A model generated the notes under the pieces. That model was not told the origin of the DNA. It did no database searches and saw only the letters and a list, made by a program, of their open reading frames with translations. From Candidatus Calditenuaceae archaeon HR02 (GTDB lineage: Archaea; Thermoproteota; Nitrososphaeria_A; Caldarchaeales; Calditenuaceae): a DNA stretch of 64,000 bases. The translations under genes were made by a program, and so were the position numbers. The stretch is from the NCBI GenBank assembly GCA_002898395.1, contig BEHE01000002.1:59462-123461 (forward strand). Reading direction: 5' to 3'. Positions 4,394-43,010 of the stretch are shown here, one piece after another. Numbering within the stretch: position 1 is the first letter of the stretch; each line of letters begins with the position of its first letter.

Positions 4394-6550
4394 ATGGATC
4401 CATTGGTTTTTACCATTACTGTGGGATTGCTCGGTGCTGCCGCTTCGGTGCTCCTAATAGCGTATGTAGAGAGGCTTCCTAAAGGTGATGAGGGGTTTGT
4501 TAATATTTGGCGCGCAATCCGGGAAGGTGCGAGCGCGTATCTTAAGAGGCAGTTTAAGACGATCGCCATCATCGCGGCTGCCTTAGCTACCTTGATTCTG
4601 GGCAGCTTCTCCATCTTTCCTCAGCTGGGGGGACTCAGATACGGCATCGCCATGGCAGGCAGCTTCCTATTGGGCGTTTGCTTCTCCCTCATCGCAGCGT
4701 TCATAGCGATGGATGCCGCTACAAGGGCTAACGTAAGGACAACGTATGCGGCCTCTCGGAGCAGTGTGCAGGCACTTCGAGTGGCGACGCTCGGCGGCGC
4801 GTCACTGGGTCTAGCAGTGATCGCTATGAGCCTTCTGGGCCTCTCTATTCTTTACGTTGTTTTCAGGGACCCTGGACTTCTGGCGGGCTTCGGGTTTGGG
4901 GCTAGTCTAGCTGCACTGTTCGCCCAACTCGGTGGAGGGATATATACTAAGAGTGCTGATATTGGTGCAGACCTTGTTGGAAAAGTGGAGGCGGGCATAC
5001 CGGAGGACGACCCTAGAAACCCCGCAGTGGTAGCCGACCTGGTTGGTGATAATGTCGGGGACGAGGCGGGTAGGGGAGCTGACCTCTTCGAGTCGGTCAC
5101 AGCCGAGAATCTTGGAGGAATGATAATAGCTCTCGTAGTGTCTATAGTATTGTTCAATGGTATTAATGAGCTGTATGTTGTCACTCCACTAATAATTAGG
5201 GCTCTCGGAGTTATAGCCACGTTCGCAGGCGTTTCTTGGGCGGTCTCGAGGAAGGGTTTTAGAGAGGCCATAGGCCCGCTTCGAGAGGGCCTGATAGTTA
5301 CGGGCATATTGGCGGCTGTTATGATGTATCTCGCCAGCTGGCTCATATTCGGACCCCAGGGCCTGCCGCTTTACGTTACAATGATTATCGGGCTGATCGC
5401 GGGCATCTTGATAATGTTTTATAGCGAGTTTTACACAGGCTTGAAGTCCAGATATGTCTCGGTGATTGCTCAGAATTCCCAGTCGGGACCAGCCCTTACC
5501 GCGATGACGGGAATATCGACCGGCATGATCTCTTCGATGCTTCCAGTTGCTACGGTTGTCGTGGCTGTAGCCCTCTCATTCTGGCTAGGGAGCTATTGGT
5601 CCGGCATCGCTGGTCTAGGTGACCCACTGCTGGGCGGGATTTATGGTACGACAATGGCGACTATGGGAATGCTCTCGACCGCTGGATTCATCTTGACCAT
5701 GGATGGCGTGGGGCCCATCGTGGATAATGCGGGAGGGATAGCAGAGATGGCTAACGCTGAGCCAGTCATTAGGGAGAGGCTCGAACCGCTTGACGCGCTC
5801 GGAAACACTACAAAGGCTCTTACAAAGTCTTATGCCATGGGCTCGGCAGCCCTAGCAGCCCTTCTTCTATTCCAAGCCTTCCTCCTGGAGGTGGCGAGGT
5901 ATATGGCGGGCATCTATGAGCTCGTGCTGATAGGGCCGGGGGAGGCTGACCGTCTCTTGAGGAGCGTCGAGATGCTTAGCTCGGGACTCCAGCTCAACTC
6001 GCCCGCCGTGGTAATAGGGCTTTTCATAGGGGGTATGATACCTTTCCTCTTCTCGGGGCAGGCAATGAATGCTGTAGCCAGCGGCGCATACCGCATGGTG
6101 GAGGAGGTGAGGAGACAGTTTGCATCAATACCGGGGATAATGGATGGAAGCGGTAGGCCAGAGTATGGGCGGTGTGTAGATATCTCCACTTCGACAGCTT
6201 TAAGACTGATGATTACGCCCACGTTGACGGTGACCCTTTCCCCGATCTTGATAGGCGTGTTGCTTGGCTGGAAGGCAGTTGGCTCCCTAGTATTGGGTGC
6301 GACGATCTCTGCGATACCACTGGCGATCATGGGGTTCTATGGTGGAGCGGCGATGGATAATGCGAAGAAGCTCCTCGAGATTGGGGGCAAGAAGGGAACT
6401 GATGCTCATAAAGCGGCAGTCGTTGGCGACACACTGGGAGATCCCATGAAAGACACTTACGCGCCGAGCCTACACATCCTGATAAAACTGCTTAATACGC
6501 TGTCCCTTGTGTTTATCCCGCTCTTTATGATTGGGCTAATACCACTCTAG
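4394..6550 (+). CDS. hppA: Membrane H+-translocating pyrophosphatase, K+-independent type
   Basis: GGGIYTKSADIGADLVGKVE, EDDPRNP, DNVGD, GPIVDNAGG, GNTTKALTK (Lys = K+-independent signature), GDTLGDPMKD. Confidence 0.97.
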   Translation: MDPLVFTITVGLLGAAASVLLIAYVERLPKGDEGFVNIWRAIREGASAYLKRQFKTIAIIAAALATLILGSFSIFPQLGGLRYGIAMAGSFLLGVCFSLIAAFIAMDAATRANVRTTYAASRSSVQALRVATLGGASLGLAVIAMSLLGLSILYVVFRDPGLLAGFGFGASLAALFAQLGGGIYTKSADIGADLVGKVEAGIPEDDPRNPAVVADLVGDNVGDEAGRGADLFESVTAENLGGMIIALVVSIVLFNGINELYVVTPLIIRALGVIATFAGVSWAVSRKGFREAIGPLREGLIVTGILAAVMMYLASWLIFGPQGLPLYVTMIIGLIAGILIMFYSEFYTGLKSRYVSVIAQNSQSGPALTAMTGISTGMISSMLPVATVVVAVALSFWLGSYWSGIAGLGDPLLGGIYGTTMATMGMLSTAGFILTMDGVGPIVDNAGGIAEMANAEPVIRERLEPLDALGNTTKALTKSYAMGSAALAALLLFQAFLLEVARYMAGIYELVLIGPGEADRLLRSVEMLSSGLQLNSPAVVIGLFIGGMIPFLFSGQAMNAVASGAYRMVEEVRRQFASIPGIMDGSGRPEYGRCVDISTSTALRLMITPTLTVTLSPILIGVLLGWKAVGSLVLGATISAIPLAIMGFYGGAAMDNAKKLLEIGGKKGTDAHKAAVVGDTLGDPMKDTYAPSLHILIKLLNTLSLVFIPLFMIGLIPL

Positions 6551-7728
6551 GGCCGCTCCCCCAACACCACCGCAACGTTTAACGTCTCACCGCCCCTAAG
6601 GATAGTCAGCAACACTGTGTCTCCAGGACTCGTCTTCTCAACCATGTATGTCAGAAGGTCGTCCATGCTAGTGACCGGGTTACCGTTTATCGCCACTATA
6701 ACATCACCTCCGACTCTATACTCTCTCCCAGCAACCACGAGGGTCCTAGAGCCTCCCTTGATACCGGCCTTATCCGCCGGACCATTCGGAACTACGCTCT
6801 CCACCAACAACCCTTTCTTCACACCGAGTCCAAGCTCACTGGCAATTAGTGCGTCTATCTCTCTACCCGAGATCCCAAGATAGCTGTGGGTATATCCGCC
6901 CTTTTCGATTAGTTCTGGAACTATACGCCTCACAACGTTTGATGATATTGCATACCCAATCCCCGCGAACTGCCCCGTAGTCGATTCTATCGCAGTGGCA
7001 ACACCTACAACTTCCCCCCTCATATTGAGAATAGGTCCTCCAGAGTTTCCAGGGTTCACGGCAGCATCTATCTGTATTATTCCGGGAATGAGGTATCCTC
7101 TACTTGAAGGTAAAAGCCTACCCTTCTGGCTGACAATGCCTGTCGTAACACTTCCCGTAAGCTCGAAGGGGTTACCGATAACGATTATCTGGTCGCCAAT
7201 CTGGAGTTCGCTCGAGTTACCGAGCCTTAAAGGCTTGAATGACCTAGTCTCCCCACTCCCAACTATCTTCAATACCGCCAAGTCCGTGTCAGGATCTCTC
7301 CCCACGAGCTCTGCCCTATAAGCACTCCCATCGATAAAGTAGACATAGTACTCCAGCCCACCTTCAACCACGTGATTATTCGTAACCACATGTCCCTTTG
7401 GGTCATAGACGAATCCGGAGCCTACAGACTCTCCAAACCTATAGAGCGTTCTTATCTCGACTACAGAATCTTTAACCATTTCATAGACCCGCGTCACATT
7501 ATACTGAATTGTTACGACGGCTGTATGGGCTGGCCGGGAATTCTCAATTGAACTTATCTCAGCCCTCGCCTCCTGCAGGTCTTTTCTGAGAGACTCTATC
7601 TTTGATTCCAGCGCAGCTATTTGAGAGGTGAGCGTCGACAGGTTTTGCTGGTAATCTATGACTTGAAGGAATAGGATTGCTATGAGGGCGAGAGATGCTG
7701 CTGATATGGCTATCGAAACCTTGCTCAT
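6547..7728 (-). CDS. htrA: HtrA/DegP serine protease with membrane anchor, coiled coil and PDZ
   Basis: GSGF, TNNHVV, DLAVLK, GNSGGP, C-terminal PDZ. Confidence 0.95.
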   Translation of the reverse strand: MSKVSIAISAASLALIAILFLQVIDYQQNLSTLTSQIAALESKIESLRKDLQEARAEISSIENSRPAHTAVVTIQYNVTRVYEMVKDSVVEIRTLYRFGESVGSGFVYDPKGHVVTNNHVVEGGLEYYVYFIDGSAYRAELVGRDPDTDLAVLKIVGSGETRSFKPLRLGNSSELQIGDQIIVIGNPFELTGSVTTGIVSQKGRLLPSSRGYLIPGIIQIDAAVNPGNSGGPILNMRGEVVGVATAIESTTGQFAGIGYAISSNVVRRIVPELIEKGGYTHSYLGISGREIDALIASELGLGVKKGLLVESVVPNGPADKAGIKGGSRTLVVAGREYRVGGDVIVAINGNPVTSMDDLLTYMVEKTSPGDTVLLTILRGGETLNVAVVLGERP

Positions 7729-7734
7729 ACTGAA

Positions 7735-9018
7735 TCACCCAGTCCTGGTTCCAATACGCTTCAACGCTTTCTCGATACCTGTTCCATACTGTGCGGCCTT
7801 CTTCTCCTTCTCTACCAGCTCGGACGGCAGACCCGCAAGCCTCGCAACACTCCTCAACACCACTTTCCTAACACCTCTAGAAATCTTGAAATTAAGTGGT
7901 AGATTATATGCATTGTTGATGATTCGTTCATCCAAGTAGGGGGTTGTTAACAGGCATCCCCCCAACGCTGCTGAAGCGTAGTCCCTCGGCAGGCTTCTGA
8001 ACCAGAGAGTGTCTAGGTCTCTCCTCATCTCCTCCTCCACGCCTGGTTGATTGCCACTCTCAAGCATGCGCAGATACTTCATATACCCCCCAAACAGCTC
8101 GTCCGCTCCCTGACCACTCACCACTTGCCTACGGCCATGCGAAGCAGCAGCCCTAGCCCCTTCGTAAACAAGCAAGGCAAGCGCCCTATCCATTAGAGAT
8201 TGAAGGATCAGGTTTTTCGTCAGGTAGCTGGATGTGTAGGCTATCTCTTGCTCAGACAGTGGTACTTTTACGTAGTCGATGTGAAGAAGCTTTGCTGCCT
8301 TCTCCGAGAAGGAGAGGTCGTGTGACCCGCCCAGACCGACCGAGATTGCCAGGGGGGCTAGGCCGAGCTCAACACACACCCACACCAGCAGTGAGCTATC
8401 AATGCCGCCAGAGAAGAGTACAGCACATTTCTTCGCTACAGACCGTTTAACCGCGGCCACCAACTCTTCGAAAAGCAACTCCGATACATCTTGCAAGTTT
8501 ATGGGAAGTGCGGTCCTTGAAGAAGTACATTCCTGTTTTTCCCCGGTTTTAGGCCCGTTGAATCTGAGCAACATCTCGCTGCAAGGAGGGACGACTTTTT
8601 CCGGGCCGGGATGGAGGCCGACTATGTAGGGTGGAGACGCGACGGTGATTATCTCGCCAGAGCTATAATACGATAGGGGTGGTGAGCCTACCTGCCTAGA
8701 CTTCAGCCTAACCACCTCGCGACGTATCTCTATCTCAGAGGTGAAGGGAGAGTCGGCAAGTTCTCCGACTCCTAGGATGCTGGAAGGTGTCAAGTGGACT
8801 GCAATACCGTCCCGTCCCTCTTCCACAACCCTCTCACCTGCGTGATGGACAACCAGCCCCACCCGCCCCTTCGCCTCGGACAATTCGCGGGGAGAGATAC
8901 GAGAACCATCTATGAAAACCTCATTCACAGGCCACCTATAAGACATCCTTAGTACCCGGTCAATTAGACTGGAGAGGAACACATCACACCTGGAGACCAC
9001 CGCGTACACTATCGCCAT
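7735..9018 (-). CDS. Asparagine synthetase-family protein (synthetase domain intact, Ntn domain divergent)
   Basis: FSGGIDSS PP-loop, SGQGADELFGGY, K..LR..A and KKAAQYGTG motifs. Confidence 0.85.
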   Translation of the reverse strand: MAIVYAVVSRCDVFLSSLIDRVLRMSYRWPVNEVFIDGSRISPRELSEAKGRVGLVVHHAGERVVEEGRDGIAVHLTPSSILGVGELADSPFTSEIEIRREVVRLKSRQVGSPPLSYYSSGEIITVASPPYIVGLHPGPEKVVPPCSEMLLRFNGPKTGEKQECTSSRTALPINLQDVSELLFEELVAAVKRSVAKKCAVLFSGGIDSSLLVWVCVELGLAPLAISVGLGGSHDLSFSEKAAKLLHIDYVKVPLSEQEIAYTSSYLTKNLILQSLMDRALALLVYEGARAAASHGRRQVVSGQGADELFGGYMKYLRMLESGNQPGVEEEMRRDLDTLWFRSLPRDYASAALGGCLLTTPYLDERIINNAYNLPLNFKISRGVRKVVLRSVARLAGLPSELVEKEKKAAQYGTGIEKALKRIGTRTG

Positions 9019-9044
9019 TGAGACTAGTTTGACCCTAGACGCTC

Positions 9045-9533
9045 TTATTCTCTCTTAAGCTTTTTCTCAACCCGCCTGAGTAGGGGGTCGGGCAGCCTTA
9101 TCTCTGGGTCGCTCCTTATTGCTGGGTGATACGGGTCAATCATTATCACCTCGAACCACTTATACACGCTATCATAAGTCAGCGGGTAGCCGCCGATTGG
9201 GTAGAGGTTGGGATATTTTTTCCTAGCTCTGTTTATCGCCTCTTCGAGCATTGTTACATTGACTTTGTGTAGAACTGTGCCGAGGGCCTTCTGCCTCCTG
9301 CCCGAGTTTGGCCGCGGCTTGCTGAAACCACCCCTCCTAACCCTAACCCTTAAGACCACGAAGCCCTGCTTCGCTTTGTACCCAATGCTTTTAGCCCGGT
9401 CAATCCTTAATGGCTTCTCTACGCGGACCACGGATGGCTCCCGCCTCCAGAGAACCCTCCTAGCCCTGAGAATAGCCTTCAGCTCATCCGGCCGATTCCT
9501 CCAAGCCTGATTCAAGAGAGCGTATAGGCCCAT
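9045..9533 (-). CDS. rpl15e: 50S ribosomal protein L15e (eL15)
   Basis: WRREPSVVRVEKPLRIDRAKSIGYKAKQGFVVLRVRVRRGG; YKWFEVIMIDPYHP. Confidence 0.96.
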   Translation of the reverse strand: MGLYALLNQAWRNRPDELKAILRARRVLWRREPSVVRVEKPLRIDRAKSIGYKAKQGFVVLRVRVRRGGFSKPRPNSGRRQKALGTVLHKVNVTMLEEAINRARKKYPNLYPIGGYPLTYDSVYKWFEVIMIDPYHPAIRSDPEIRLPDPLLRRVEKKLKRE

Positions 9534-9661
9534 GTCCCGTCCAGCCCTGAGCGCCCCAATGACACTCTAGCCTCCATGATAAATACCCTTAAAGGTCTGA
9601 GAGTTGCCAAGATGTGGCGATAAAGGGGTTTTATATATCTGTACAATCTTTTACGGATGGA

Positions 9662-9868
9662 TTGCTTAGACTCAAGGTTGGCAAATCACTTGGAATGTGG
9701 GAATGGGCAACCACGAGCTGCGACGCCTGCCTCCTAGACATCGAGGAGGGAGCCGAGGTTTCCAAGTGTGGTAACTGTGGGGCCTTATTCCACGCCGATT
9801 GTTTCAGAAATCTTCTGAACACAAAGTCTGTATGCCCAAAGTGTAGGGTGAGCTTGTATGAGCAGTAA
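9662..9868 (+). CDS. Small C4HC3 RING-finger protein (putative E3)
   Basis: C-x2-C-x12-C-x2-C-x4-H-x2-C-x10-CPxC. TATA-like TTTTATATAT at ~9629-9638 favours a leaderless TTG start at 9662. Confidence 0.85.
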   Translation: MLRLKVGKSLGMWEWATTSCDACLLDIEEGAEVSKCGNCGALFHADCFRNLLNTKSVCPKCRVSLYEQ

Positions 9869-10232
9869 TGAGAAAGAGGAGGCAGGGCCCGGCGAGGAGG
9901 AAGAGATAGTCATCGACATTATAGAGACGCCTAGGGGCCGTGTCCCTGAATTCGACAGTACCTTCCGCGCACTCGAGAAAATATCGGCCAGACTTTTAGA
10001 GCAGGATGAGAAGATAGAAAGGGCTTTGAGCCGCATATCGAGTGGACAGCTATCAAGCACCGAGCTTAAGACAATTCTGGAGACACTCGAGTCTATTAGA
10101 GAAGACTTATCTAAACTCTCGAAGAGGCTGGAGATAATAGAGGATAATATAGGTGAAATGTATGAAAGGCTAAACCTGCTGGACTATCTGGCTGATATCG
10201 TTGAGCGTTATCTTCGCTCCCTAGAGGGCTAG
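9858..10232 (+). CDS. Coiled-coil protein with acidic N-terminus, overlapping the small RING gene
   Basis: 11-bp overlap with the upstream ORF; heptad Leu/Ile pattern in the C-terminal half. Confidence 0.75.
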   Translation: MSSNEKEEAGPGEEEEIVIDIIETPRGRVPEFDSTFRALEKISARLLEQDEKIERALSRISSGQLSSTELKTILETLESIREDLSKLSKRLEIIEDNIGEMYERLNLLDYLADIVERYLRSLEG

Positions 10233-11077
10233 GTGGGTCCCCGAAGTATTCCGCCCCTGAGTTCCTGCTTAATCCGCTCCAACTCCCGCTTCTCAGACTC
10301 CAGCCTAGAAATCTCCTGGGCGAGCTGGGCTTTCTTCTTCTCCAGCCTCCTCACCTCCTCGGCCAGCTGCGAGAACTGCTTGTTATACTCCTCAGCAATA
10401 GATTTTGCCGCCTCGAGCCTCAATATCTCCTCCCTCTTCCGCTCCTCCAGCCTCACGAGCCTCTCGAGCCTCGCCTCCCTCACTTTAAACCTCTTGTCCA
10501 ATTCTTTCATAGTCTTCTCAATGCCTTCAGCCGCGGACTGGAGCGCTGCGAAATAGGAGCCGTGGAGCTCTCTTATCTTCTCCTCGAGATACGCCTTCCG
10601 CTCCTCCAGCTCTTCGACCTCTTTCTCAAAATTCCTCAAGGCCCTGTCCTTCTCCTCGACCTCCTGCCTAAGCTGAATCAGCTCTTGGCGCAATGTCTCG
10701 AGGTTGTTTTTCTCCTGCTCCAACCTCTCCCTCTCCTGCAGTATTGCCTGCCTGGCCTTCTCCAAGACCTCTACCTGCTCCCTCTGAAACTCCAGTAGCC
10801 TCGCCAGCTCCTCCTGCTGCTCTTGGAAGATCACGAGGTATGAGGTGAGGGACTTCAAGACATTCACGCCTTCAATGAACTCTTTTATGAGATATTCTGG
10901 CTGAGTTGAGGCTAATGCGTCAAACCTAGCAATCATTTCTTGGGCGGCAGACTTTATCTGGCTAATCACGCTTCCCGAGATTTGCGACTCGATGTTTTGG
11001 AGCTGAGTCATTATACTCCTTAAATTCTGCGATATAGCTTCCAGCTCCTCTGAACGCCGCCCTATTATCGAGCCCAT
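10229..11077 (-). CDS. Long coiled-coil protein of unknown function
   Basis: 282 aa, E/K/R/Q/L-rich with long heptad runs and no enzyme motif. Confidence 0.8.
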   Translation of the reverse strand: MGSIIGRRSEELEAISQNLRSIMTQLQNIESQISGSVISQIKSAAQEMIARFDALASTQPEYLIKEFIEGVNVLKSLTSYLVIFQEQQEELARLLEFQREQVEVLEKARQAILQERERLEQEKNNLETLRQELIQLRQEVEEKDRALRNFEKEVEELEERKAYLEEKIRELHGSYFAALQSAAEGIEKTMKELDKRFKVREARLERLVRLEERKREEILRLEAAKSIAEEYNKQFSQLAEEVRRLEKKKAQLAQEISRLESEKRELERIKQELRGGILRGPT

Positions 11078-11197
11078 CCTTCGTAATCTCTCTATTTCTT
11101 CGGATATAAATCTATACTCCTCGAATTATTGGCCAAGCCCTCTATCTGAATCGGTGAACTTATTTATATATAGGCTGCATGATGAAAGTGCAGGTCA

Positions 11198-11950
11198 ATG
11201 ATCACTCAGACAAGTGAGGCTTTGGCCAGGTTCAGCAGGATCGGTGCTCTAATCTCACTCTTAGGTGCGACACACGCTTTAAGCCTAATACTCAACTGGT
11301 TCTCGATAAATTACGACGATGTTGGCCGATCCCTGATCAGTGGGTATACCTTCATGGAGCCCCTACTGATTTCTTTGGCTGCTGGCGGCGCGGCCGGCGC
11401 AACAGGCGTGTTTGCCTCAAATCTTAAGGATCTCACGAAGCTTAGACTCGTTGTGCCACTCCTCTCTTTTACTGCGGCGGGGCTAGCCCTCTTCTCACCC
11501 CTCTACACATACTTGATAAAGCTTCCAGGCTTCGGTGGCCTGAACTTCATTCCCGAGCTGGGTCTATTCGCAGCCCTCTTCACAGGGATAGCGATAACGG
11601 GTGCCTCGATACTCGCCCTAATTGCTGCCATGCGGACACGTGTTACAGCCTACATGGCGCCATCACCCCTCTGGGTAACGGCAAGGGAAGAGGAGACCGG
11701 GACAGTCGCGGAGTTTACCGAGCCGACAGCCGAGGAACAGGCAGCCATACTTGAGCAGGCTCCGGAGAGGGAGGAAAGGGGATTAGAAACAGCGGCGGGC
11801 GGCCAGTGTATGATATGTGGCGACCTCATCACAGGAGGTGATACTGAGTCCTGTCACAGGTGTGGAGCCGTCTTTCATAAGGATTGCATGAACGTGTGGG
11901 TTGACTTGGGGAATAAGTGCCCTTCCTGTGGAGGGGAGCTCCGAGGCTAG
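11198..11950 (+). CDS. Multi-pass membrane protein with acidic linker and C-terminal C4HC3 RING finger
   Basis: About 4 TM helices, then an E-rich linker, then CMIC-x11-CHRC-x4-HKDC-MNVW-x6-CPSC. TATA-like TTTATATATA at ~11163-11172. Confidence 0.85.
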   Translation: MITQTSEALARFSRIGALISLLGATHALSLILNWFSINYDDVGRSLISGYTFMEPLLISLAAGGAAGATGVFASNLKDLTKLRLVVPLLSFTAAGLALFSPLYTYLIKLPGFGGLNFIPELGLFAALFTGIAITGASILALIAAMRTRVTAYMAPSPLWVTAREEETGTVAEFTEPTAEEQAAILEQAPEREERGLETAAGGQCMICGDLITGGDTESCHRCGAVFHKDCMNVWVDLGNKCPSCGGELRG

Positions 11951-12039
11951 AGCCTACTGTATGAGGGATGGACAGTCATCTAGACGGCTAGCCTGGCTAA
12001 TCAGCTATTTATTGCGCAGATCTGATGGTTTGAGAGGAG

Positions 12040-13548
12040 ATGCCTGAGCAGCTCGCCGAGAGCATTGTCCAACTCGCGTTGAGGAGGGGGTTCTTTAACC
12101 CCACAGCTGAGATATACAGGGGCCCAGCCGGCTTCTATGATCTAGGACCGCTGGGAACACTGATGAAGCTAAACCTCATCAATTATTGGCTGGACACTTT
12201 CGTGAAGAGGGAGACATCCTTCGAAGTCTACCTTATCGACGGTTCATTGATACTCCCATATGAAGCATTGAAAGCTTCTGGTCACGTAGACAAGTTCACT
12301 GATCCCAAGGCGGAGTGTGTTAAGTGTGGCAGAATCCACCGCCTAGACCAGCTCATCGAGGAGACGCTAGGATTGAAGGTGGAAGGAAAGGGTATCGAAG
12401 ACCTGCAGGAGATAGTGAAGGTTCAGGGGGTTAGATGTCCCAATTGTGGGGGCGAGCTGACGGGCTTTAAGGAGCACCACCTGATGTTCAAACTCTCTAT
12501 AGGGGGAGGGGGGGAGGCCGCATTTCTCCGCCCCGAGACGGCGCAAAACATCTTCCTAAACTTTAAGAGAATAGCATACGCTATGAGGGCTAAGCTACCC
12601 TTCGCAGTAGCCCAGGTTGGGAAATCATTTAGGAACGAGATCTCCCCCCGCCAGTCCATTATCAGGCTCCGAGAATTCAGCCAAATGGAGATTGAGGTCT
12701 TCTTTTCTCCCATTAGAGGCGACGGGCCCAGTAAGTTCGAGGATGTTGGCGATACTGTTATTCGTGTCTTGACCCGAGAGGAGCAGAAGAGAGGTGATGG
12801 CGGAGAGGCAATAGAGCTGAGAGCCAGAGATGCCGTTGAGGAGGGAATAGTACCTAACAAGTTCCTAGCATACTATCTTGCCAAGGAGGTGAGGTTCTTT
12901 CAGTCGCTCGGTATTCCGCCTGAAAACATGAGGTTCAGACACCTGCTGCCAGAGGAGACGCCACACTACTCGGGGGGGAATTTTGACCTCGAGGTGAAGT
13001 TCTCGTTTGGATGGAAGGAGGTCGTGGGGAACGCTTACAGGCGAGACTATGACCTCACAGTCCACTCCAAGCACTCTGGAGAGGACCTTTCAATAGATGA
13101 TAATGGCGTGAAAATAGTTCCACATGTGGTTGAGCCATCTTTCGGTGTTGAAAGAATTCTTTACGCAATACTCGAGCATTCGTACAGGGAAGGAGTTAGA
13201 GAGTGGCCCATTCTAATGCTCCCTAGAATAATCTCTCCCATAAAAGCAGCCATACTCCCATTACTTGACCGGACCGCCTTGGTGGCGAAGGCTTGGGAGA
13301 TCTACACCTGGCTCAGGGCTAGTAGGCTTCCCATCTACACTGTTTATGACGATCGGGGATCAATTGGTAGAAGATATGCACGGGCTGATGAGGCGGGCGT
13401 CAACCTCTGCGTGACAATCGACCACCAGACACTACAGGACAACACGGTTACGGTTAGGGATAGAGACACTACATCACAGATTAGAGTAAAGATAGATGAG
13501 CTTGAGGAGCTAATCTTCAACGACACGTATAGGGGACTGGAACAGTAA
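12040..13548 (+). CDS. glyS: Glycine--tRNA ligase (alpha2 type)
   Basis: ASGHVDKFTDP, LRPETAQ, FRNEISPR, RLREFSQME, VEPSFGVER, GSIGRRYARADE. Confidence 0.97.
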   Translation: MPEQLAESIVQLALRRGFFNPTAEIYRGPAGFYDLGPLGTLMKLNLINYWLDTFVKRETSFEVYLIDGSLILPYEALKASGHVDKFTDPKAECVKCGRIHRLDQLIEETLGLKVEGKGIEDLQEIVKVQGVRCPNCGGELTGFKEHHLMFKLSIGGGGEAAFLRPETAQNIFLNFKRIAYAMRAKLPFAVAQVGKSFRNEISPRQSIIRLREFSQMEIEVFFSPIRGDGPSKFEDVGDTVIRVLTREEQKRGDGGEAIELRARDAVEEGIVPNKFLAYYLAKEVRFFQSLGIPPENMRFRHLLPEETPHYSGGNFDLEVKFSFGWKEVVGNAYRRDYDLTVHSKHSGEDLSIDDNGVKIVPHVVEPSFGVERILYAILEHSYREGVREWPILMLPRIISPIKAAILPLLDRTALVAKAWEIYTWLRASRLPIYTVYDDRGSIGRRYARADEAGVNLCVTIDHQTLQDNTVTVRDRDTTSQIRVKIDELEELIFNDTYRGLEQ

Positions 13549-29585: not shown

Positions 29586-30308
29586 GGCGCTGTCAACCAG
29601 GTATTACACCTTCTCTGGTAGATTGCAGGAGTGAGTTGTGTATCAGAGCTATTGCGCTCACCAACTCTTCTAGGCTCTTCATCGTTTTAGCGTTCACGTT
29701 GTTGTAGAACCTCTTTGTCCTGTCCTTAAGTTCCCTGAACCATCTCTCTATCCTGTTCCTTTTACCGAAGGTCTCATGTACGTATTCAAGTCCAAGCCTC
29801 TTCAATGCCCATGGATACCAAGGACCTCTATCAACTACTATCAAAGGCCTGTTCTCGCATGACTTAAGTACCATCTTGAGGAAGATCAAGGAGTTCAGAA
29901 GGGATCTGCTTCTGGAAACTAGGACTGCGATTATCTCCCCTGAATCCACGTCAATTGCAGACCAAATGAAGCATCTCTGTCCTTTCAAGCTGATCACGGT
30001 CTCGTCCACAGCCACAATCCTCCTGGACTTCCTCGAAGGATTGAACAGCATTGACGTCCTGTGAACCCATTCCCTAACGCTCTCCCTAGAAGCGCTGATC
30101 AAGTTGTACCTCTCAGAGATGTCCCTCAAGCTGAGACCTGCTAGATAGGGGATTACAGCATACGCCTTCTCCAACGGAGAGTAGTTATGGAACCTGAACA
30201 GGGAAGAGATCTTATCCAGCAAGTAATCTAATACGTGCACGGAAAGGGAAGAAGCAAGAAGCAACATAGGCATTTCTGGGAAAAGCTTAAGTAAAAGTTG
30301 ACAGTGCG
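29586..30308 (-). mobile_element. IS6-family insertion sequence
   Basis: Imperfect terminal inverted repeats (TIRs) GGCGCTGTCAAC (29586) and GTTGACAGTGCG (30297-30308) around a DDE transposase. Confidence 0.85.
29593..30273 (-). CDS. IS6-family transposase
   Basis: AVDET, WSAIDVDSGE, VDRGPWY, RNRIERWF; start placed at the ATG inside the TIR. Confidence 0.92.
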   Translation of the reverse strand: MPMLLLASSLSVHVLDYLLDKISSLFRFHNYSPLEKAYAVIPYLAGLSLRDISERYNLISASRESVREWVHRTSMLFNPSRKSRRIVAVDETVISLKGQRCFIWSAIDVDSGEIIAVLVSRSRSLLNSLIFLKMVLKSCENRPLIVVDRGPWYPWALKRLGLEYVHETFGKRNRIERWFRELKDRTKRFYNNVNAKTMKSLEELVSAIALIHNSLLQSTREGVIPG

Positions 30309-30395
30309 CTGAATAACTCTGAAAAGAAAAAAAATACAATAACTAAACACATAACAACATTTACGAAGACTCTCTTATTAATTATTAGTAGGGAA

Positions 30396-31482
30396 TGCCT
30401 TGTGGCTTATTTCATAGGCTTTTCTAGGTTCTTGAGTCTTCTCTCCGGCTTTGTATTGGTGCTTCTGGGTTTTGGAGGCGGTTCTTTATGAAGATTAAGG
30501 CCTATGGCCTACCGTTACTTCCCTCTTCTCAATGACTTCCTGCTGGAAGAGAGTTGATGATAGGCTCATCAGGAGGGGCATACTTATCCTGGACCTGAAG
30601 TTTGTTAGGAGTTATGCAGATGAGCTCAGGGATATGAACGACGGTAGGAGGGGTAGGCCATACAGGATAACGAATAGCTTCATCATATTCCTAGCGGTCT
30701 TTAGGTATGTATTCTCTGTTAGGTTTAGGCAGCTTGAGGGCTTCACTATAGCACTGAGAAAAATGTTCCCAATACTTCCCAGCATAGACTATTCATGGAT
30801 TAGGGGGAGGATAATGAGGCTGGGTATCGATCTAAGCCCCCTAGGCTCCAACGGAGTCTGGAGAGCCTGTAGTCGTAGTCCTGGACTCTACTGGTGTTAA
30901 GGCTTGTAGGGCTGGATCATGGCTTGAGAGGGGGTATGGTAAGAGGAGGAGGTATGTCAAGATACATGTAACTGTAAACGCTAAGACCGGAGAGATAATA
31001 GATATTGAAATGTCTAGGGATGATGTTCATGACTCAGAGATGGTGGATAAGATGATTGAGAGATCCATGAAGGCTGTGGAGATACATGGAGTAATAGCTG
31101 ATGGAGCATACGACTCCATAAAGCTATACAGACATCTAGAAGCTATGGGTATATAGCCTATAATAAGGCCTAGGAAGAACGCTAGGACAGATAGGGGCCT
31201 CCCCCTAGGAGATCAGCAGCCAGAATGATAAGAGACTATGGATTCGACATATGGCGTAGGGTGGTAGGCTATGGCAGGAGATGGATGGCAGAGACAGCAA
31301 TATCAATCTTCAAGTCGATCTTCGGGGAAGAAATCCTCTCCAAGAAGCCCAGATGGATGAAGGTAGAGATGGTACAGAAGGCATACATATACACCCTCCT
31401 ACTGAACACCGCATAAACCTAGGATTTAGAAAGACCAGCAAGAGAAGAGGATATCAAGCTAAAGGAATTAAGCCACAAGGCA
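30396..31482 (+). mobile_element. IS5-family (IS903-like) element, defective
   Basis: 18-bp TIRs with one mismatch: TGCCTTGTGGCTTATTTC (30396-30413) and GAATTAAGCCACAAGGCA (31465-31482). Confidence 0.88.
30532..31416 (+). pseudogene. IS5-family transposase pseudogene
   Basis: LIRRG, GRPY, RQLEGF, LDSTG, KIHV, HDS, ADGAYD, YGRRWMAETAIS; frameshift near 30850 and in-frame TAG near 31155. Confidence 0.9.
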
Positions 31483-41346: not shown

Positions 41347-43010
41347 TTAGCCGATAGGCAGGCCTCGTCTTATAAGCTGTGCTACATTCTTCGCAGGTTT
41401 TCCATATTTCTCAAATGCTGCGGGATAGTTCTCCCTTTCAATTATCTCCTTGTGCCGCCGCGCCATGTTATCTAGTGCGGTTTGAGGAGTGATATTGCCC
41501 GCTAGTGCTGCATGTATCTCTTCTTGTACGACAGTCAGCATCTCGAAGAAGAATGGAACGTTCCAGAAGTCGACTTGGAATGCTATAGAGTCGGCATAGG
41601 CCCGGTTGTATGGTGTTAGGTTCCTAAACCACTCGGTCTGGACGATGTCCCTGATACATACTCCGCCACCACCTTCAGCCCATCTACGCTGATTCTGGGG
41701 CTGGAACCAGAATTTTATGAAGGCAAGCGCCTCCTCTGCATAGTCGCTGTAGGCGTTTATACACATCGGCTGTCCCCCGATTCCGCTATACCTCCTGAAT
41801 ATACCATCATCTCCTTTGTGCCCAGGCGGAGGCACAACCCTTATCACGTTGTATACCTTGGATGCCGCAGGGTCGAAGAGCTCGGAAGGAAGCCGGCCCA
41901 GTTATAGATCATGGCTACTCTTCCAGCCTGCATTACGGCATTGGCCTCGTCAAACCATATTTCAAGGGCGTTCGGTGGGGCATAGGGGACTAGCGAGACA
42001 TAGAACTCGAGGGCCTGCCGCGCCCTCGGGCTATTGATCCATCCATCAACTTCTCCCGTCTCAGGGTCCCACCAATACTCTCCATGGCTATACAATATTG
42101 AGCCGAACGGACAGGCGATGGCGTCGTAGGCCCTAGACATATGTAGAGCTATTCCATAGAAGTCCTCGTCTAAACGTTTCCCGGCCAGCTCGTCCCCAGC
42201 CTTCCTTGTGAAATACCTGGCAATGTCTCGTATCTGGTACCAGTCAAGCTGCGCTGGATACCAGTCCTCGTAGTTTAGCGGGAGGTCATATCCGTATTGG
42301 GCCTTAAAGTTCTCCCTCTCTGTCGGGTGAGAGAATAAGTCATACCTGTAGACGAAGAGTAGCACATCACCCTCATGTGCGAAGCCGACTATGTTGTTGA
42401 TATTCCCTTGAGGATAAGTCATGTAGAAGTAGACTAGAGATGGGTCAAACCGGTTGAGTAGCTGCTGGAGCTCAGGGTCCCTATCTATTATGTCGTTAAG
42501 CCTCCGTATGTGCCCCCCGACGTAGAACTGGCCGAGCCACTGGCTATCAGATATCAAAAGGGTAGGCTCTTTGGACTTGGCTGCCAGTACCGTTGAGAGC
42601 CTATCGAAGATAGCATCCCAAGGAATCAGGTCCATCTTCACCTCGACTGCCTTACCGATGTTAGCTTTAGACCAGGCTGGGAAGTCCTTAGCTATGAGGC
42701 CTGTTAGCCTACCTGGCAGCCACTCAGGAGAGGCGAAAGTAATAGAAAGCTCAGGCTTTACCTCACCCACTGGTGCGGTGGCCGTGACAGTCTCTGTTCT
42801 CGTCACGGTCTGCGTTACTGTTTGGGCACCGGGTCCGGGCTGAGTTACTGTCTGGGTCAGTGTTCTCGTAACCTCTCTGCCCGGCTGCGCGGAGGTCCCA
42901 GCGAGGTAGCCAGCGATCCCACCTACAACACCGGTTACAACTGCTGCTGTAGCTACTTTAGCACCTGTGCTAATTGCATCGCGCCTTGAAATTTTTCTAT
43001 CTCTTGACAT
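41347..43010 (-). pseudogene. CUT1 ABC substrate-binding protein with Tat signal, frameshifted near 41885
   Basis: SRRDA twin-Arg and Thr-rich linker. ...YNWAGFLP continues in another frame as ELFDPAASKVYNVIRVVPPPG, joining the two track ORFs. Confidence 0.85.

Follow-up and report, generated by a model that had tools for sequence, protein, structure and literature searches.

Results

Gene layout and putative promoters

Positions 9662 to 11950 of the archaeal DNA analysed here (contig BEHE01000002.1; 64 kb in full, hereafter the window) contain four genes encoding two RING proteins and two coiled-coil proteins. The first of these, sRING (9662..9868, + strand), encodes a 68 aa soluble small RING protein, its core at residues 20-61 (9719-9844) being recognised by the zf-RING_2 profile, an AlphaFold (AF2) model and its conservation. 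It overlaps by 11 bp (9858-9868) with CC1 (9858..10232, +), which encodes a 124 aa coiled-coil protein whose N-terminus is acidic and which carries a conserved TPxG-x-VP motif. CC2 (10229..11077, -), encoding a 282 aa coiled-coil protein, converges on CC1 tail-to-tail with a 4-bp overlap and is separated by a divergent gap of 120 bp (11078-11197) from mRING (11198..11950, +), which encodes a 250 aa membrane RING protein. A first-pass annotation of this DNA had described two C4HC3 proteins of near-identical ligand spacing flanking two coiled-coil genes, together with the 11-bp overlap and the 120-bp gap; that description proved accurate in its coordinates and in its reading of the ligands, whose first-loop spacings are x12 and x11.

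Three TATA-like boxes accompany these genes. The box of sRING (9629..9638, +) is located about 29 nt upstream of the TTG start codon at 9662 and has a core, TTTTATATA, that is invariant in 6/6 aligned sequences. The divergent gap holds the other two, each likewise invariant in 6/6: GGATATAAATCT (written as + strand), about 30 nt upstream of the CC2 start codon (11102..11113, -), and ATTTATATA, about 31 nt upstream of the mRING start codon (11163..11172, +). If these conserved boxes act as archaeal promoters, they would indicate three transcription units.

The full sRING frame spans 9614..9868 (+), with a longer start at GTG 9614, and initiation at TTG 9662 yields the 68 aa product. We favour TTG 9662 because all three sRING database clusters found are 68 aa long, because the residues between this codon and an internal ATG at 9695 are conserved in 6/6 relatives (the Met of 9695 being replaced by Val in two), and because of the position of the TTTTATATA box. 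All four genes are under purifying selection, with ratios of nonsynonymous to synonymous substitution (dN/dS) of 0.06-0.19 against 6 relatives wherever dS was computable; the ratios are 0.09-0.19 for sRING and 0.06-0.12 for mRING.

Assignment of both zinc domains to the RING family

The zinc ligands follow the pattern C-x2-C-x12-C-x2-C-x4-H-x2-C-x10-C-x2-C in sRING and C-x2-C-x11-C-x2-C-x4-H-x2-C-x10-C-x2-C in mRING. Both domains end in CPxC (CPKC and CPSC), and the residue two positions before ligand 7 is Ser in sRING and Asn in mRING, with no Trp at that position in either, as the first-pass annotation had observed. All eight ligands are invariant in the 16/16 RING domains aligned from the window and the related loci described below, ligand 4 being Cys and not His. 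In HMMER alignments the column that holds the ligand-4 His of RING-H2 domains contains Ala without exception, and the site is completed by a Cys that lies three residues upstream of where ligand 3 is usually found.

Comparison with Pfam profiles placed both domains above the gathering score of zf-RING_2 (sRING 37.7 bits, mRING 32.2 bits; gathering score 27.3), whereas for the PHD profile, with its cutoff of 24, they reached only 15.2 and 13.0 bits. Prok-RING_1 (PF14446) scored 21.8 and 24.3 bits against a gathering score of 29.1, with approximately the first 35 of its 54 profile positions matched, and is the label precomputed on 13/15 mRING database clusters. A PDB sequence search with a profile of the 16 RING domains returned 53 sequences at E <= 0.01, headed by ubiquitin ligases (E3s) of the RING-H2 type: EL5 (E 3.7e-11), Arkadia, RNF4, RNF165, Pirh2, gp78 and synoviolin. 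Chains of the histone methyltransferases MLL3 and KMT2D, which we take to be PHD-finger proteins, appear near the bottom of the same search (E 5e-3 to 9e-3).

The AF2 model of sRING has a predicted local distance difference test (pLDDT) score of 89-94 over residues 21-60, and Foldseek superposes it on the RING domains of EL5, gp78, RNF38, RNF165 and RNF12 at 1.5-2.2 A over 47-50 residues, with 30-38% identity. The Foldseek rows listed for this model are of RING or U-box type, and none is described as a PHD finger. The structural model was made for sRING, and the RING of mRING is tied to the same fold through hhalign, which identifies the mRING C-terminus as homologous to sRING with a probability of 96.6%. 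A six-frame translation of the window and of ten loci, searched with a profile of these RINGs, revealed no third copy. Profile scores, PDB matches and model superposition together lead us to assign both domains to the RING and not the PHD class, which bears out the preference expressed in the first-pass annotation. The two are paralogues, and both are of the archaeal small-RING type, relatives of RING-H2 domains with C4HC3 ligands; a 2024 review gives C4HC3 as the ligand set of prokaryotic RINGs.

Comparison with a proven archaeal E3 at its tested residues

The motif printed by Nunoura et al. (2011) for the small RING finger protein (srfp) of Candidatus Caldiarchaeum subterraneum is C-X2-C-X11-C-X2-C-X4-H-X2-C-X10-C-X2-C. 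The spacing of mRING is identical to it and that of sRING is one residue longer, in the first loop (X12). The biochemical account of Hennell James et al. (2017) describes srfp as having C3 and H4 out of register, with an additional Cys where a His is usual, and includes the findings that ubiquitylation in vitro requires srfp, that the substitutions I30Q, W58A and R69A impair it, and that the pro-ubiquitin of this lineage is trimmed by an Rpn11 homologue. On the printed spacing, I30 would correspond to the residue just ahead of ligand 2, W58 to the fourth residue beyond ligand 6 and R69 to the one that follows ligand 8; likeness to srfp is judged here from the printed motif and the described residues.

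At the first two of these positions mRING has I206 and W234, invariant in 15/15 sequences, and at the third it has Gly or Asn (G245 here). The corresponding residues of sRING are A22 and L51, with Ala and Leu in 7/7, followed by R62 at the third position, which is Arg or Lys in 7/7. Alignments with EL5 and Arkadia place a Trp, and an Arg after the last Cys, at matching columns. Both domains therefore appear to belong to the same RING lineage as the proven E3, and neither has the full set of tested residues.

Architecture and distribution of mRING

Kyte-Doolittle analysis of mRING reveals four hydrophobic segments, at about residues 15-35, 56-74, 84-104 and 120-146, with peaks of 1.6-2.2. They form a membrane domain (11240..11644, +) to which no Pfam family was matched. 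An acidic linker of about 50 residues follows (residues 150-200; 11645..11797, +), poorly conserved in sequence and variable in length, with 12 Asp and Glu versus 3 Lys and Arg; after it comes the RING domain (residues 204-244; 11807..11929, +), identified by zf-RING_2, by its ligands, which are invariant in 15/15 sequences, and by the hhalign match to the sRING profile. Lys and Arg are concentrated in the loop at 75-86 and just after the fourth helix, and because of this clustering we place both termini, and with them the RING, on the cytoplasmic side (N-in/C-in). Homologs of mRING form 15 clusters of 190-284 aa in a set of 5.8 billion sequences, down to 34% identity.

The coiled-coil proteins CC1 and CC2

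Both central genes show a strong heptad signal, the contrast at a/d positions reaching z = 6.4 in CC1 and z = 7.6 in CC2, values that 0/200 shuffles attain. For CC1, searches of Pfam, NCBIfam and PDB gave coiled-coil noise only, with no Pfam model, and its best look-alike in the Atlas scored 0.84, below lead level. A word-indexed search identified 10 clusters at >= 55% identity, and a profile search of 1.84 billion representatives returned 41 proteins at E <= 1e-3. Most of these are long repetitive proteins matched in many stretches, as expected of coiled-coil noise, and 13 are short (31-192 aa, most 100-131). No fused RING-CC1 protein was seen among the 41, 28 of which were judged to be noise from their matched stretches, without a RING scan.

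A motif of the form (I/V)(E/D)-T-P-x-G-x-V-(P/A)-T stands ahead of the coiled coil in 9/11 of the short CC1 relatives examined. These nine (P0029, P0033, P0034, P0035, P0042, P0043, P0047, P0052 and P0063) are 105-131 aa long and 22-36% identical to CC1; of the remainder, P0056 begins inside the motif, and P0053 (192 aa), which is without it, was left out of the alignment. CC1 thus looks like a member of a small, undescribed family that reaches beyond this clade and has no Pfam model. A complex prediction for sRING with CC1 scored 0.02 against a mark of 0.32, a result that counts neither for nor against binding.

The AlphaFold model of CC2 comprises two short N-terminal helices and then a continuous helix of about 217 residues (60-276; mean pLDDT 82). 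CC2 is the slowest of the four genes, with a dN of 0.032 against the relative L002, where ribosomal protein L15e and glycyl-tRNA synthetase (GlyRS) each have 0.036. Foldseek against the PDB gave three matches, all at E >= 5.9, and a PDB profile search gave 0 matches at E <= 1e-3; Pfam and NCBIfam returned coiled-coil noise only (SMC arms, BLOC1_2, and BRE1 at E 0.31). The nearest named Atlas clusters are crescentin-like, with scores of 0.80-0.82 that are of lead level only. The CC2 C-terminus (10229-10270) reads ELRGG(I/M)LRG followed by two variable residues, the motif being invariant in 6/6 sequences. This tail resembles the LRGG end of ubiquitin with a short extension, a likeness that may be coincidental.

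Several other identities were considered for the coiled-coil genes and rejected. A relationship of CC2 to ESCRT-III or PspA found no Snf7 or PspA match in Pfam or NCBIfam, and the model shows a single long helix rather than a hairpin. CC2 likewise has no ATPase head of the SMC/Rad50 kind and scored 26 bits against cutoffs above 500. A defence origin was suggested only by weak PADLOC matches to the coiled-coil regions of JetC and LmuB, and a viral origin only by one weak PHROGs match, of CC1 (E 8.6e-4).

Linkage of the four genes across relatives

A genome scan with the mRING alignment identified ten loci (L001-L010). L010, from an Actinomycetota record, was excluded because its match covers 15 residues only, leaving nine true loci (L001-L009), all from metagenome-assembled genomes labelled Caldarchaeales, Calditenuaceae, Calditenuis, Nitrososphaerota or Thermoproteota. 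Linkage was assessed by tblastn of ten window proteins against the loci, together with lists of open reading frames (ORFs). In five loci (L002, L003, L004, L005 and L007) the gene order is that of the window: HtrA, Asn-synthase-like, L15e, sRING, CC1, CC2, mRING, GlyRS, NTPase and Trm1. The four genes are therefore adjacent in 5/9 true loci, or 5/5 of those that hold both flanks. All five are colinear over about 10 kb, housekeeping genes included, and these flanking genes are 50-93% identical. The shared order in these loci is whole-region synteny and says little about function.

In L006, mRING, GlyRS, NTPase and Trm1 are followed by a proteasome gene and then by sRING-CC1-CC2, which here lies 6.7 kb from mRING. 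The displaced trio is bracketed by 234-nt inverted repeats (L006:7327-7560 and L006:9305-9538) that are 96% complementary, have no Rfam match and have no copy in the window or the other loci. Such an arrangement may reflect a segment capable of inversion or movement, or else an error of assembly. The trio is absent from the stretch analysed of L001; the 1.7 kb that precede mRING there contain no CC2 and hold an unrelated 369 aa ORF (L001:78-1187) with no Pfam match, paralogues of which, 34-41% identical, occur at L001:9043-9675, L003:17194-17991 and L006:9508-9759. The family of this ORF is multi-copy, possibly mobile, and lies near both rearranged sites.

In the Calditenuis loci L008 and L009, mRING is 35% identical to that of the window and still precedes GlyRS, as it does directly in 9/9 true loci (11198-13548 in the window); GlyRS is the only neighbour of mRING conserved to this depth. 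No sRING-CC1-CC2 trio was detected by tblastn in the 10 kb upstream of mRING in either locus. Upstream of mRING, L008 has an Lrp/AsnC regulator and a thiolase-fold (ACP_syn_III-type) enzyme, taken for hydroxymethylglutaryl-CoA synthase, along with other ORFs that on visual inspection resemble a thiolase and a DUF35-type protein.

The trio itself is complete and identically arranged in 6/6 loci that have any of its three genes, the rearranged L006 included, and all six retain both overlaps, that of sRING with CC1 (4-14 bp) and the 4-bp one between the tails of CC1 and CC2. Since the trio remains intact where it has moved, in L006, and since mRING occurs without it in L008 and L009, we read the locus as a conserved sRING-CC1-CC2 cassette next to a separable mRING. 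Within that cassette, sRING and CC1 have the look of a genuine operon pair. The four-gene module proposed in the first-pass annotation is partly supported: linkage is kept within the trio, in 6/6, and does not extend beyond general synteny for mRING, whose link to the trio is broken in L006 and, over the 10 kb upstream, absent in L008 and L009, and whose flanking genes are equally syntenic where the order is kept.

Host and ubiquitin machinery of the lineage

Annotation of 63 other window ORFs with Pfam identified reverse gyrase, archaeal ribosomal proteins, A-type ATPase subunits, a proteasome beta subunit and an H+-pyrophosphatase. This gene content is that of a thermophilic archaeon, and the host belongs to the Caldarchaeales (former Aigarchaeota). 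The 63 ORFs, each of at least 70 aa, were drawn from a non-overlapping pick of 67, and among them, with shorter ORFs outside the scan, there were 0 matches at E <= 1e-5 to ubiquitin, ThiF, UQ_con or JAB; this agrees with the first-pass annotation, which had found no adjacent gene for ubiquitin, a ubiquitin-activating enzyme (E1) or a ubiquitin-conjugating enzyme (E2). Genes for ubiquitin, E2, E1 or Rpn11 were also not seen in L008 upstream of mRING, in the stretch 5500-10000.

Systems of ubiquitin, E1, E2, RING and Rpn11 have been published for the Caldarchaeales (Nunoura et al., 2011; Grau-Bove et al., 2014; Hua et al., 2018). The survey of Grau-Bove et al. (2014) includes ubiquitin toolkits in 11 aigarchaeal genomes of the pSL4 group, complete in 7/11, and up to nine "C3H2C3 RING (zf_RING_2 domain) E3s in an aigarchaeote"; the genome account of Hua et al. 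(2018) includes a ubiquitin system in 6/6 bins. One of the loci analysed here, L009, is itself a pSL4 record. Because these components are published for its relatives (Grau-Bove et al., 2014; Hua et al., 2018), the present genome is likely to encode ubiquitin, E1 and E2 as well.

Elsewhere in the window, three further features were noted. A LAGLIDADG-domain ORF occupies 1185-1814, near the window start; two DDE transposase-like ORFs (DDE_Tnp_IS240 and DDE_Tnp_1_5) adjoin the A-type ATPase genes at 29593-30900; and a solute-binding protein at 41347-43010 is seemingly split into ORFs of 166 and 388 aa with a 4-bp overlap, which may be a frameshift.

Discussion

A proposed membrane-tethered RING E3 and a proposed RING with a coiled-coil partner

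The likeliest reading of the locus, which we judge about evenly poised between right and wrong, is that it encodes two units, namely an E3 whose RING is tethered to the membrane and a small RING whose translation is coupled to that of a coiled-coil partner. mRING would be a free-standing E3, comprising four membrane helices, a flexible acidic tether of about 50 residues and a cytoplasmic RING, and would recruit charged E2~Ub, encoded elsewhere in the genome, to membrane proteins. It would have its own promoter and not be tied to the other three genes. At the two positions of E2 contact in the characterised Caldiarchaeum E3, its RING retains Ile and Trp.

The second unit would be built on sRING and CC1, which, with overlapping stop and start, are expected to be translated from the same message and may form a complex in which the CC1 coiled coil supplies oligomerisation or substrate binding. 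The engagement of E2 by sRING may be weak, or may need a partner, because it has Ala and Leu at the E2-contact positions; its basic linchpin is kept. CC2 would be a slowly evolving rod of about 30 nm that travels with sRING-CC1 as either scaffold or target.

Several points weigh against this proposal. The window contains no ubiquitin, E1, E2 or JAB gene, and the cofactors are assumed from the literature on relatives. The colinear relatives are close ones, with flanking genes equally syntenic, and the argument for contact among sRING, CC1 and CC2 comes solely from gene arrangement. Relatives of CC1 occur outside this clade, so a RING-independent function of CC1 is possible. At the residue level, mRING has Gly or Asn where a linchpin Arg or Lys is expected, and sRING has Ala at the position where the change of Ile to Gln killed srfp activity.

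Some of these points suit a different explanation, in which the RINGs are structural or protein-binding zinc modules without ligase activity and the trio is a filament- or rod-like system, with CC2 as its main component and sRING and CC1 as accessories. CC2 evolves as slowly as L15e, its predicted helix is long and single, and its nearest named Atlas clusters are crescentin-like at lead level only; neither RING has all three srfp-critical residues, sRING has Ala at its key E2-contact position, and there are no ubiquitin, E1 or E2 genes in the surrounding 64 kb. Against this, the nearest matches to both RINGs, by sequence and by fold, are active RING-H2 E3s, the two have a ligand motif in common with a biochemically proven archaeal E3, the conjugation machinery is reported for the lineage, and the Ile and Trp of mRING, kept in 15/15, are hard to explain without an E2-type partner. 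We consider this explanation unlikely.

It is improbable, in our estimation, that all four proteins form one multi-subunit E3 in which the small RING is linked to the membrane RING through the coiled coils. Such an assembly would fit the order kept in 5/5 loci with both flanks, across synonymous divergence from 0.4 to above 2, the complementarity of the two RINGs at three functional positions (Ile and Trp in mRING only, the linchpin in sRING only), and the 120-bp divergent promoter region with conserved boxes that CC2 and mRING share. It fits poorly with the 6.7 kb between the trio and mRING in L006, with the placement of mRING beside GlyRS in L008 and L009, where no trio was found in the 10 kb upstream and where, in L008, this stretch has Lrp/AsnC and lipid-metabolism genes, and with the unrelated 369 aa ORF in the place of CC2 in L001. 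The neighbouring housekeeping genes are, moreover, equally syntenic, and three separate TATA-like boxes point to three transcription units.

A bolder version joins the two RINGs themselves, as an obligate heterodimeric ligase at the membrane in which mRING docks the E2 through its Ile and Trp, the sRING linchpin Arg locks the closed E2~Ub, and a CC1-CC2 rod joins them or presents substrates. This we regard as a long shot. Under it, the CC2 tail with its invariant LRGG could serve an Rpn11-type protease as a site of recognition or processing. The sRING-mRING pair, if real, would be the prokaryotic equivalent of such active/inactive RING pairs as BRCA1-BARD1 and RING1B-BMI1, and would prefigure membrane quality-control E3s. 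The weakest alternative, which takes the zinc domains for C4HC3 readers, either PHD fingers or generic zinc ribbons, can draw on weak Pfam matches to PHD, C1 and zinc-ribbon families and on the C4HC3 order and C-x2-C-x4-H-x2-C centre that are typical of PHD fingers also, and is hardly tenable given the subthreshold PHD scores beside the zf-RING_2 scores, the absent Trp, the Foldseek rows listed and the low rank of the MLL3 and KMT2D chains.

Novelty and significance

The idea of extra E3s acting in trans, put forward in the first-pass annotation, is not new: that several RING paralogues act with one E1/E2 set has been proposed in published work (Grau-Bove et al., 2014). We found neither an archaeal RING with a membrane anchor nor an operon pairing a RING with a coiled coil described in the literature; orthologues of these RING genes may be listed in the supplementary tables of Grau-Bove et al. 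(2014) and Hua et al. (2018), which were outside the search.

Eukaryote-like ubiquitylation in archaea has been reconstituted with one small RING encoded in a ubiquitin operon. A membrane RING and a RING coupled to a coiled coil would be the first hints of specialised E3s, one localised and the other oligomeric, in an archaeon with a minimal ubiquitin system. If active, they would provide simple thermostable models of membrane-tethered and coiled-coil-assisted RING ligases, and a testable step from one general E3 to many. Because its family is confined to a narrow Caldarchaeales clade (15 clusters), the membrane RING probably arose as an elaboration within this lineage and is unlikely to be ancestral to the eukaryotic forms.

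Comparison with known systems

The closest known system is srfp (CSUB_C1477), the E3 of the Ub/E2/E1/srfp/Rpn11 cluster of C. subterraneum, which belongs to the same archaeal order as the host. The RINGs described here share its ligand motif, exactly in mRING and one residue off in sRING, and its C4HC3 oddity, and sRING is, like srfp, small and stand-alone. Unlike srfp, their genes lie outside any Ub/E1/E2 cluster, mRING has four membrane helices, sRING is coupled to a coiled-coil gene, and neither keeps all three equivalents of I30, W58 and R69. Prok-RING_1 (PF14446) is the label on most mRING clusters, yet both sRING and mRING score below its gathering threshold here.

Among eukaryotic proteins, the RING-H2 E3 domains of EL5, Arkadia/RNF111, RNF165, RNF38, gp78/AMFR and HRD1/synoviolin are the best matches by sequence profile and fold. 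The Trp after ligand 6 of mRING and the Arg after ligand 8 of sRING align with those of EL5 and Arkadia; unlike in the eukaryotic RING-H2 domains, ligand 4 is Cys instead of His, with the invariant Ala in the His column, and the proteins are unrelated outside the RING. The eukaryotic membrane RING E3s HRD1, gp78, RNF13-type PA-TM-RING proteins and ZNRF3 combine, as mRING is predicted to do in outline, membrane helices with a subsequent cytoplasmic RING-H2-like domain, and the RINGs of HRD1, gp78, RNF13 and ZNRF3 are among the Foldseek or PDB profile matches. We regard this resemblance as analogy, with no homology seen outside the RING and the four-helix domain known only from the 15 clusters of this clade.

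For sRING and CC1, the relevant comparison is with the eukaryotic TRIM, Bre1, Rad18 and TRAF types, which pair a RING with a coiled coil that oligomerises the ligase. Pfam, NCBIfam and PDB searches related neither CC1 nor CC2 to the coiled coils of these proteins beyond coiled-coil noise, and, unlike in these types, the RING and the coiled coil are here separate, translationally coupled genes. Membrane-anchored and coiled-coil RING architectures dominate the eukaryotic E3 families.

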